DNA from: Escherichia phage ECO95 1-6-1
Direction: 5' to 3' (one strand)
Sequence record: OR845278.1
Length of the DNA: 5,303 bases
A model generated the notes under the pieces. It was not told the origin of the DNA and made no database searches. It worked only from the letters and a program-made list of their open reading frames with translations. Below, piece by piece: positions 2,000 through 3,937 of the stretch. The translations under genes and the position numbers were made by a program. How positions within the stretch are numbered: the first letter of the stretch is position 1; each line of letters begins with the position of its first letter.

Positions 2000-3937
2000 G
2001 TGACTCTTAAACGGGCCTGTTCCCTGCTGACGGTGAAATCCTTCAGTGAGGATGAACGGGTGATCACCGGGATTGCGTCAACGCCTTCTCCGGATCGGGA
2101 TGGTGACATCCTGGAGCCGGAGGGCGCGGAGTTTGGCAGTGCGATACCGTTTCTCTGGCAGCATGACCATTCCCGCCCGGTGGGGCAGTGTACGGTGCGC
2201 CGGGTCAGCGAAGGGCTGGAAATCACGGCAACACTGGTGAAGCCCGTACCGGATATGCCGTCGCAACTGGCTGCCCGGCTGGATGAGGTCTGGGCGGCCA
2301 TTAAGACCGGGCTGGTCAGGGGGCTGTCCGTGGGCTTCCGTCCCCATGAATACACCTTTCTGGACGGAGGCGGACTGCATTTTCTGCGCTGGGAACTGAT
2401 GGAGGTGTCTGCCGTCACCGTGCCCGCGAATGCGGAATGCACCATCCGGACCATTAAATCTTACGACCGCCCGTTTTCTGCCGCGTCCGGCAACCGGAAA
2501 CCGGTGGTGAAAATCGCATCTTCTGCCGGCGCTGCGGCACAGTCAACAACCGTTTTTCATAAGGAAAAGACCATAATGAATATTGGCGAACAGATTAAAA
2601 GTTTTGAAAACAAGCGTGCAGCGCTGGCAGCCTCCCTTGAGGAGGTCATGACCAAAGCCGCAGAGGAAGGGCGCACGCTGGATGTGGAGGAGGAAGAGCA
2701 TTACGACAACACCGCAGCGGAAATCCGTCAGGTGGATGCGCACCTGAAGCGCCTGCGTGAACTGGAAGCCGGTAAGGCCGCCACGGCGCAGCCGGTGAAA
2801 CAGGCCGGTAACGGGAATGTGGCCGCGGTGGCTTCTGCGCCGGTGATCCGTGTGGAGCAGAAACTGGATAAGGGGATTGGCTTCGCCCGCTTTGCCAAAT
2901 CGCTGGCTGCGGCTAAAGGCGTCCGATCTGAAGCCCTGGAAGTGGCCCGTCGTCAGTATCCGGATGACAGTCGTCTGCATCATGTCCTGAAATCGGCAGT
3001 GGGCGCGGGGACCACCACGGATCCGCAGTGGGCAGGCAGCCTGTCTGAATATCAGGAATACGCACAGGACTTTATTGATTACCTGCGTCCGCAGACCATT
3101 ATCGGGCGATTTGGTCAGGGCGGGATCCCTGCACTTCGTCAGGTGCCATTCAATATCCGTGTGCACGCCCAGGTGTCCGGCGGTGCTGCCGGCTGGGTGG
3201 GTGAGGGTAAGGCAAAACCCCTGACGAAGTTTGATTTTGAATCCATCACCTTCAGTCATGCGAAGGTGTCGGCCATTGCGGTACTGACGGAAGAATTGAT
3301 CCGTTTTTCCAGTCCGGCTGCTGATGCACTGGTCCGTAATGCGCTGGCGGAAGCGGTGGTGGCGCGTCTGGATACAGACTTTGTGGACCCGAAAAAAGCC
3401 GCAGTGGCAGATGTCTCCCCGGCGTCCATCACCCATGATGTGAAGGGCACGGCATCAACCGGTAACCCGGATGCGGATGCAGAGGCTGCGTTTGGACAGT
3501 TTGTGGCAGCAAACCTGCAGCCCACCGGTGCGGTCTGGCTGATGTCCAGCACCAATGCCCTGGCACTGTCCATGCGTAAAAATGCGCTGGGTCAGAAGGA
3601 ATACCCGGACATGACCCTGCTGGGTGGCTCCTTCCAGGGGCTGCCGGTGATTGTCTCCCAGTACGTGGGTGACCAGCTGGTGCTGGTGAATGCCCCGGAT
3701 ATTTATCTGGCGGATGACGGCGGCGTGGCAGTGGATATGTCCCGCGAGGCATCACTGGAAATGCAGTCTGAGCCGGGCGGCGACAGTACCACGCCGTCCC
3801 CGGTGGAGCTGGTTTCCATGTTCCAGACAGGCAGCGTGGCCATCCGTGCGGAGCGCTGGATCAACTGGCGTCGTCGCCGTACCGCGGCGGTGGCGGTGAT
3901 CACCGGAGTGAACTACGGCAGTGCGTCCGGCGGCTGA
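2000..3937 (+). CDS. HK97-family prohead (maturation) protease fused in-frame to HK97-fold major capsid protein, 645 aa; protease domain roughly aa 1-165, linker, capsid delta/coiled-coil domain from aa 193, capsid body to the C-terminus
   Basis: Single uninterrupted ORF from GTG 2000 to TGA 3935-3937. The N-terminus carries HK97 prohead protease-like motifs (FLWQHDHSRPVGQ and GLSVGFRP). The middle is charged and coiled-coil-like (MNIGEQIKSFENKRAALAASLEEVMTKAAEEGRTLDVEEEEHYDNTAAEIRQVDAHLKRLRELEAG), typical of the N-terminal delta domain of HK97-like capsid proteins. The C-terminal ~300 aa are Gly/Ala/Val-rich, typical of a capsid body. Confidence 0.88.
   Translation: MTLKRACSLLTVKSFSEDERVITGIASTPSPDRDGDILEPEGAEFGSAIPFLWQHDHSRPVGQCTVRRVSEGLEITATLVKPVPDMPSQLAARLDEVWAAIKTGLVRGLSVGFRPHEYTFLDGGGLHFLRWELMEVSAVTVPANAECTIRTIKSYDRPFSAASGNRKPVVKIASSAGAAAQSTTVFHKEKTIMNIGEQIKSFENKRAALAASLEEVMTKAAEEGRTLDVEEEEHYDNTAAEIRQVDAHLKRLRELEAGKAATAQPVKQAGNGNVAAVASAPVIRVEQKLDKGIGFARFAKSLAAAKGVRSEALEVARRQYPDDSRLHHVLKSAVGAGTTTDPQWAGSLSEYQEYAQDFIDYLRPQTIIGRFGQGGIPALRQVPFNIRVHAQVSGGAAGWVGEGKAKPLTKFDFESITFSHAKVSAIAVLTEELIRFSSPAADALVRNALAEAVVARLDTDFVDPKKAAVADVSPASITHDVKGTASTGNPDADAEAAFGQFVAANLQPTGAVWLMSSTNALALSMRKNALGQKEYPDMTLLGGSFQGLPVIVSQYVGDQLVLVNAPDIYLADDGGVAVDMSREASLEMQSEPGGDSTTPSPVELVSMFQTGSVAIRAERWINWRRRRTAAVAVITGVNYGSASGG
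2561..2578 (+). promoter_or_regulatory. Internal in-frame translation initiation candidate (AAGGA SD, 10-nt spacer, ATG 2576) at the protease/capsid domain junction
   Basis: AAGGA at 2561-2565 and in-frame ATG at 2576-2578 sit in a locally A/T-rich stretch (cataaggaaaagaccataATGaatattggcgaacagattaaaag) within otherwise GC-rich coding sequence. The ATG is the first residue of the capsid delta domain. It would yield a ~453-aa capsid protein (2576..3937) lacking the protease. Confidence 0.4.

Follow-up and report, generated by a model that had tools for sequence, protein, structure and literature searches.

The protease-capsid fusion gene and its domain boundary

The DNA stretch analyzed here, 5,303 nucleotides (nt) from Escherichia phage ECO95 1-6-1 (record OR845278.1; the whole stretch is referred to as the window), corresponds to the head-morphogenesis module of a lambdoid, Shiga toxin-type (Stx-type) Escherichia coli prophage. 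The end of terS (to position 278) and terL (275 to 1936) are followed by an open reading frame (ORF) that starts with GTG and runs on the plus strand from position 2000 to 3937, encoding a protein of 645 amino acids (aa) and 69.0 kDa in which a prohead protease, a linker, a delta domain and a major capsid protein (MCP) are fused. At the boundary between protease part and delta domain, this ORF and its relatives carry a conserved initiation region, which suggests, with a probability that we put at about 0.7, that the single gene gives two in-frame, co-terminal products, the 69-kDa fusion and a 48-kDa capsid-only protein. Such dual expression had been proposed from the letters of the window (the sequence-only reading), starting from the lack of a stop codon between the protease and delta domains, and the ORF is indeed intact throughout.

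Both parts of the protein were recognized by Pfam above the gathering scores, Peptidase_S78 (PF04586) at aa 48 to 152 with 34.7 bits (cut-off, 21) and Phage_capsid (PF05065) at aa 386 to 635 with 52.7 bits (cut-off, 24.2). The protease profile TIGR01543 gave 46.4 bits, under its cut-off of 59, and TIGR01554 (NCBIfam major_cap_HK97) gave 78.3 bits (cut-off, 27.5), with aa 204 to 584 aligned on model positions 3 to 355. In an AlphaFold2 (AF2) model based on 46 homologs, the S78 (HK97 gp4-type) prohead protease domain occupies aa 1 to 142 (positions 2000 to 2425, plus strand, as are the domains that follow). It includes His55 (codon at 2162 to 2164) and Ser110 (2327 to 2329), which are invariant among the 46 homologs and align with H65 and S114 of HK97 gp4, the catalytic residues of that protease. 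The linker (aa 143 to 192; positions 2426 to 2575) varies between relatives by indels and substitutions and is disordered in the model over residues 143 to 191, with predicted local distance difference test (pLDDT) values below 50. The delta (scaffolding) domain follows (aa 193 to 262; positions 2576 to 2785), with helices at residues 195 to 223 and 229 to 262 (pLDDT of about 90), then a second disordered stretch (266 to 285) and the HK97-fold capsid body (aa 293 to 645; positions 2876 to 3934; pLDDT of 70 to 95). Since the change from disorder to helix falls at residues 191/195, Met193 lies exactly at the domain boundary. The best Foldseek matches were the capsid chains of Bxb1, D3, HK97 and T5, with E values of 3e-15 to 1e-9 (1e-15 to 1e-10 for the top three) and target-normalized TM-scores of 0.5 to 0.74.

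No scaffold gene was found between TerL and the portal gene, which starts at 4149, the only ORF there being one of 73 aa of unknown function. The sequence-only reading had noted this lack and presumed that the delta domain acts as the scaffold, an assumption supported by a profile alignment with residues 4 to 67 of the solved MCP 9gyi_B, by TIGR01554, whose model position 3 corresponds to residue 12 of the predicted short product, and by the AF2 helices. For its part, the linker is the counterpart of the C-terminal tail of stand-alone proteases, as judged from its alignment to the KPFVIRxIKRT tails of relatives in which the two genes are split (see below). A free C-terminal capsid-targeting tail was not found in the window ORF: the tail-homologous segment runs into the delta domain without a stop, and a tether appears to take the place of the free tail.

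The predicted nested ORF (delta-MCP, 453 aa, 48.2 kDa; positions 2576 to 3937, plus strand) would start at the ATG at 2576 to 2578, which is codon 193 of the long frame [(2576 − 2000)/3 = 192]. It is preceded by a Shine-Dalgarno (SD)-like AAGGA (2561 to 2565) with a 10-nt spacer and a predicted anti-SD duplex energy of −6.2 kcal/mol, and the AT-rich, weakly structured island around it spans positions 2546 to 2605. The coordinates, reading frame and AT richness claimed for this site in the sequence-only reading were all confirmed. Within 30 nt on either side of the ATG, the GC content was 0.30, the minimum of all windows of this size, versus 0.61 in the rest of the ORF (0.43 to 0.45 across positions 2501 to 2650 in 100-nt windows), and the minimum free energy of folding was −5.8 versus −18.7 kcal/mol, the weakest folding of any window in the ORF. 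A combined initiation score (SD duplex plus start codon minus local mRNA folding, a home-made measure that omits standby sites and translational coupling) placed ATG 2576 first among the 47 in-frame ATG, GTG and TTG codons, at −0.8 versus 5.6 kcal/mol for the next candidate. A 151-nt fold at the junction had a z-score of −2.7 and showed a long-range GC stem with the SD and the ATG in its weakly paired interior. No sigma-70-like promoter was found inside the ORF and no Rfam family in the window, so neither a separate internal transcript nor a known RNA element is indicated. A minus-strand ORF of 297 aa (2543 to 3436), overlapping both the junction and the delta domain, is most likely a side effect of the high GC content of the coding strand.

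Conservation of the fusion and of the initiation region

The whole window matched 1,248 records of complete E. coli genomes and 91 phage records at 97 to 99% identity, and the ORF was intact in 1,243 complete E. coli genomes (coverage of at least 80%). Phages 2851, BP-4795, YYZ-2008 and 1717 carry the fusion. A scan of viral contigs yielded almost exclusively E. coli loci very similar to one another, and among these E. coli-type contigs the junction sequence was identical in 62 of the 64 with a locatable junction pattern, 16 more loci giving no pattern match. At the protein level, the cluster of the 645-aa protein comprised 9,916 members of equal length, and fusions at 73 to 78% identity were found in Salmonella, Enterobacter, Klebsiella, Serratia, Pantoea and others. 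An exhaustive profile search rendered 12,515 relatives. Of the 150 best-matching clusters, formed at 50% identity, about 140 aligned with the query over its entire length, with 38 to 54% identity. Homologous fusions (38 to 78% identity) extend through the Proteobacteria, and one of them is ORF003 of Pseudomonas phage PAJU2 (48% identity; its ATG is at aa 197), annotated as "structural protein; prohead protease fused capsid protein." We regard the domain architecture and the conservation of the fusion as established.

The head module was also present, at 98.6% identity, in ON470597, ON470625 and ON470626 ("Escherichia phage vB_EcoS-...," 18 to 24 kb), which may be partial genomes or satellite-like elements. 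Three database proteins (P0001, 1079 aa; P0123, 1094 aa; P0132, 1091 aa) have about 440 extra N-terminal residues before the protease-MCP part, with a TerL ATPase Pfam match in P0001; the extra residues could stem from read-through in gene calling, from frameshifts or from a larger fusion.

The junction was compared in 80 loci (one genome per species, mostly alpha-, beta- and gamma-proteobacteria) found with a 12-sequence alignment; these and the window included 68 fused and 10 split loci. In all 68 fused loci the codon of the first delta-domain residue is a start codon (ATG in 63, GTG in 3 and TTG in 2), and where Val or Leu replaces Met, the codons are exclusively GTG or TTG. Two further loci have no start codon at the aligned position and an in-frame Met 5 to 7 codons upstream. 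Anti-SD duplexes of −5 kcal/mol or stronger were observed at 90% of the junctions, versus 17% of 2,359 other in-frame start-like codons (Mann-Whitney p = 2e-30 for SD strength, a value that, like the other p-value given here, overstates independence because the loci are phylogenetically related), and the junction SD was seen in 17 of the 20 clusters at 60% identity. The spacer between SD and start was 5 to 10 nt long across the fused loci. The GG core of the SD occurs in more than one codon register (35, 27 and 5 loci) and is translated into varying residues (K-G, K-E, x-R-K, Q-E-G and E-E-G), which indicates that the SD is conserved as nucleotides and not as an amino acid pattern.

The base composition and predicted folding of the region were in line with these results. 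The 30 nt on either side of the junction start fell in the lowest 5% of the ORF for GC content in 58 of the 68 loci and for folding energy in 52, and GC content at third codon positions (GC3) was reduced by 0.13 to 0.19 in codons −20 to +10 only (64 of 68 loci; p = 3e-12). With a median of 34 in-frame candidates per ORF, the junction start ranked first by the combined score in 62 of the 68 loci, compared to 2.0 expected. The sequence-only reading had proposed to look for the SD-like motif and start codon in related fusions, and both are retained although the linker around them is hypervariable, with indels and substitutions. Retention extends down to 57% amino acid identity in a clade of Enterobacterales and Morganellaceae (23 loci, sampled as fused only). 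We take these comparisons to demonstrate that selection has acted on the nucleotides themselves in favor of an initiation region where the two domains meet.

The 10 split relatives have a stop codon in the linker, and their MCP gene is initiated from this same Met, behind the same SD. In four of them the linker stop is in frame, and two of these four have a TAA just 12 nt before the ATG. Five stand-alone MCP representatives start no more than 2 residues from the position aligned to Met193. A stop at the junction of relatives, anticipated as a possible outcome in the sequence-only reading, does occur, but it is not the rule: the split loci are scattered over at least six places among the fused clades in a rough neighbor-joining tree (no bootstrap). 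All the comparative checks that had been proposed for dual expression came out in its favor, the fusion being conserved, the SD kept and the split MCPs starting at the same Met.

The KPFVIRxIKRT tail of the split proteases aligns to the end of the fused linker (K-P-V-x-L-x-P-K-E-G), and the gp4/gp5 junction of HK97 reads TAA-tt-ATG, the ribosome-binding site of gp5 being contained in the final codons of gp4. Taken together, the alignment and the HK97 layout indicate that the fusion is the HK97 arrangement minus its stop. KPFVIRxIKRT-like tails, presumably capsid-targeting signals, end the stand-alone proteases of seven split loci (L128, L132, L156, L157, L159, L160 and L161), and in L160 the MCP ribosome-binding site is encoded within the protease tail (atcAAAAGGAcctgagcATG). 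The C-terminal tail of HK97 gp4 (L164:3960-4025; ...LLQSIKSFPSNLGK) resembles the start of the delta domain, ..GEQIKSFENK (window positions 2576 to 2620); this likeness may be fortuitous or may reflect mimicry of a delta-domain helix by the targeting tail.

A comparable site was found outside this family. Actinophage fusions of two unrelated families have one of their highest-scoring in-frame initiation sites immediately behind the protease domain: at aa 160 in Maggie gp7 (L167:3704-5287) and at aa 165 in Circum gp12 (L168:5037-7013), it is the best of the entire ORF, and at aa 241 in Gordon gp13 (L169:8802-10499), which has an MPDL start in common with Circum, the second best. Gordon gp13 also shows an apparent internal duplication of the segment after the internal site. 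Two other candidates, annotated as "capsid protein" in fLi-Aba03 and as "major head protein" in Sugarland, were discarded, since they are ordinary separate protease genes with misleading names.

Two predicted products and alternative explanations

We infer from the sequence comparisons that the internal site is used, and likewise the product ratio, the co-assembly and the self-removal described here. Ribosomes starting at GTG 2000 would produce the 69-kDa protease-linker-delta-MCP, while those starting at ATG 2576, served by the AAGGA at 2561 to 2565 and by the unstructured AT-rich island, would produce the 48-kDa delta-MCP, in effect an ordinary capsid precursor of the HK97 type that carries a scaffold domain of its own at the N terminus. 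The two products would co-assemble via their identical delta-MCP parts, so that a covalent tether would bring the protease into the procapsid, in place of the usual noncovalent C-terminal targeting tail. Inside the procapsid, the protease (His55/Ser110) would remove the delta domains together with the linker and its own domain, so that mature HK97-fold subunits remain.

The same two initiation regions could work in both the split and the fused states. With the stop present, the first start would yield a free protease whose tail would bring it into the procapsid; with the stop absent, the same ribosomes would read on and yield a tethered protease, and the internal start would still supply the delta-MCP. 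The fusion may thus be regarded as an HK97 gp4/gp5 junction without its stop, and lineages would flip between split and fused by small changes. Fused and split architectures differ only by the stop codon, which in some split relatives lies in frame just upstream of the start.

As for the proportion of the products, a crude thermodynamic score placed the internal start ahead of the 5′ start in 48 of 59 loci (median difference, 6.8 kcal/mol) and by 6.7 kcal/mol in the window, where the 5′ start is moreover GTG, the homologous codon being ATG in relatives. By this crude score, the fusion would be the minor species and the capsid-only product the abundant one. The notion of an intrinsically weak 5′ start was dropped, since SD strength alone did not separate the two starts; it stands only for the GTG and local structure of the window. 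There, the full-length ORF has the SD AGGAGG at 1989 to 1994 (plus strand), 5 nt before GTG 2000, with a duplex energy of −10.3 kcal/mol. Between the TerL stop and this SD lies a terminator-like hairpin (1961 to 1987, plus strand; GAACCGC-TGCG-GCGGTTT), a 7-bp stem followed by TTTTATTTT, and T-runs are found likewise just upstream of the SD in Enterobacterales relatives. This putative terminator could reduce the transcription or translation that reaches the fusion gene.

One alternative is that only the fusion is made, every subunit being of 69 kDa, and that SD, ATG and AT-rich island are unused carry-over from a two-gene ancestor, refreshed by switching. Each T=7 shell would then hold about 415 protease domains, which poses a stoichiometry problem because each capsid subunit would carry a protease; by our own estimate, however, the interior of a T=7 procapsid could take roughly 13 MDa of internal domains. 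The scattering of split relatives in the tree, which implies frequent transitions, the homology of the fused linker to the tail of separate proteases and the strong 5′ SD of most relatives also agree with this explanation. It fits poorly with the survival of the signature in the clade sampled as fused only (23 loci, 57% identity) despite the change of linker, with GC3 lowered specifically at the site and Met swapped only for GTG or TTG, and with the first rank of the junction in 62 of 68 loci and the same feature in unrelated actinophage fusions, given that an unused motif of 5 to 6 nt, a start codon and low structure are unlikely to outlast such divergence. We consider it unlikely, and the suggestion in the sequence-only reading that the internal site is a relic of an ancestral gene boundary is disfavored in the same way by the conserved SD and start codon in fusions.

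It is less probable still that the boundary is not an initiation site, the region being a purine- and AT-rich linker (with flexible Lys, Gly and Glu residues or a cleavage site) or a translational pause, and Met193 being kept for delta function. SD-like sequences within genes have been proposed to slow ribosomes, a disputed view; Lys/Glu/Gly-rich linkers are common and their codons SD-like, and the first delta residues are conserved as protein. Nevertheless, an SD core that stands in varied registers encoding varied residues at a spacing held to 5 to 10 nt, Val/Leu replacements encoded only by GTG or TTG, the bias at synonymous sites and stand-alone MCP genes that start at exactly this codon are hard to account for in this manner. 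An assembly or sequencing artifact, in which a lost stop or an indel fused two genes, had also been considered in the sequence-only reading, and some relatives do have a stop in the linker. Its probability is negligible: it is refuted by the population data, that is, the identical junction in 62 of 64 E. coli-type viral contigs, the ORF found intact in 1,243 complete genomes, as well as in many phages sequenced independently of one another (about 1,250 E. coli genomes carry the fusion), the 9,916-member cluster of 645-aa proteins and the presence of fusions at 38 to 78% identity in different phyla.

Several points weigh against the two-product reading itself. The AAGGA of the window is modest (−6.2 kcal/mol), and seven other in-frame start-like codons match the anti-SD equally well or better; it is unremarkable alone, so the comparative evidence carries the argument. 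There, besides the relatedness of the loci, the conserved delta N terminus (MNIAEQIKSFE) has AT-rich codons and adds to the GC dip, a protein-level conservation for which the GC3 and register comparisons were designed as controls. Since lineages move back and forth between the split and fused forms, some of the signal could be a remnant of split ancestors. The 5′ start of the relatives has a good SD, usually with ATG (median SD energy, −7.3 versus −5.6 kcal/mol for the internal site), and the idea of a rare fusion relies on a home-made score dominated by local folding.

Comparable systems and neighboring genes

A close counterpart is HK97 gp4/gp5, which has the same S78 protease family and delta-MCP family (TIGR01554), no scaffold gene and an MCP start region within the last protease codons. 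It differs in that a stop (TAA plus 2 nt) splits the genes and the protease enters the prohead by means of a free C-terminal tail, whereas here the protease is joined covalently to the delta-MCP, and in gene order, the portal coming after the capsid gene in the window. The nested pairs lambda C/Nu3 and Mu I/Z each have a long ORF that begins with a protease domain and contains an internal in-frame start for a shorter co-terminal assembly protein, and two initiation sites on one mRNA set the ratio of the products. The analogy with lambda C/Nu3 drawn in the sequence-only reading is apt, the protease-first long ORF and the internal in-frame start (here a sequence signature) being common to both. 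Unlike in the window, the short product of lambda and Mu is a scaffold only and the MCP is separate, whereas here it would be the capsid protein with a built-in scaffold; the lambda protease is, in addition, of a different family (S49/ClpP-like) from S78.

Herpesvirus UL26/UL26.5 is as close an analog as lambda C/Nu3. Its protease enters the procapsid fused to the scaffold, a nested in-frame start gives an abundant protease-free version, and the protease removes itself and the scaffold. Delivery of the protease by fusion and the nested start would thus be alike, and both the protease fold and the HK97-fold capsid are homologous; the differences are that UL26.5 has its own promoter and mRNA and that the scaffold is not fused to the capsid protein.

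The fusion itself is already known and named in databases and papers. Genes annotated as "major capsid and protease fusion" have the same domain architecture as the window ORF, and annotated fusions are found in Arthrobacter clusters AM, AU and AN, Rhodococcus RRH1, Rhodobacter RcC, thaumarchaeal proviruses and PAJU2 (ORF003). The databases hold the fusion families phrog_617, phrog_4523 and NCBIfam NF045541. The window ORF matched phrog_617 over its full length (869.6 bits; aa 1 to 639 on profile positions 7 to 626 of 626), and it matched NF045541 ("prohead protease/major capsid protein fusion protein") over aa 48 to 287 only, with 54 bits (cut-off, 525), so the window ORF and NF045541 belong to distinct fusion families with a common architecture. 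In three papers (PMC5513430, PMC8601537, PMC6563490), protease-capsid fusions are treated as single-product genes, "an unusual feature," with no mention of an internal start. Neither proteomic nor ribosome-profiling results on the two products turned up in the papers searched, and no description of a conserved internal capsid start in protease-MCP fusions was found, an absence that is weak evidence given incomplete literature coverage. The "scaffold and protease fusions" of lambda are mentioned in PMC5513430, and a CBASS preprint has a protease-scaffold fusion as its subject.

Protease-capsid fusions have repeatedly been remarked upon as an unexplained oddity, in Stx phages, PAJU2, Arthrobacter, Rhodobacter and archaeal proviruses. 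A conserved internal start, if real, would resolve the stoichiometry problem, would provide a simple, testable rule for protease dose and encapsidation, and would connect HK97-type delta-domain assembly with the nesting of protease and scaffold seen in lambda, Mu and herpesviruses. In proteomics, MNIGEQIK would be diagnostic of the short product and TIMNIGEQIK of the fusion. Such a start would also argue for annotation of the second product (453 aa from 2576), the gene being present in about one-quarter of complete E. coli genomes, Shiga toxin prophages included. More tentatively, with chances a little short of even, protease-MCP fusions across tailed phages and archaeal proviruses may as a rule be nested two-product genes, with a dosed, tethered protease and the bulk of the MCP from the internal start, the gain or loss of the linker stop being a recurrent switch between tether and free tail. 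Such a rule, if true, would be the phage counterpart of herpesvirus UL26/UL26.5 in the HK97-fold lineage, and thousands of genomes would lack an annotated major capsid gene product.

The gene order around the fusion (TerS-TerL-[protease-MCP]-small ORF[s]-portal) is noncanonical, the portal usually lying ahead of the protease, and in 71 of 81 related loci, PAJU2 included, a portal homolog comes after the capsid gene. The 73-aa ORF between the capsid and portal genes (3982 to 4203, plus strand) overlaps the portal start and matched phrog_829 (134 bits), a family of unknown function; PAJU2 has two small ORFs in its place. The portal gene is long and runs from 4149 off the end of the window (5303). 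The full portal (L001:10139-12718) has 859 aa, with a portal domain at aa 45 to 388 and a C-terminal extension of about 470 aa of no known family. A homolog of this extension is a separate gene (ORF007) in PAJU2, which makes it a second fused/split pair in the same module, and the portal copy of E. coli O157 is labeled as frameshifted by RefSeq.

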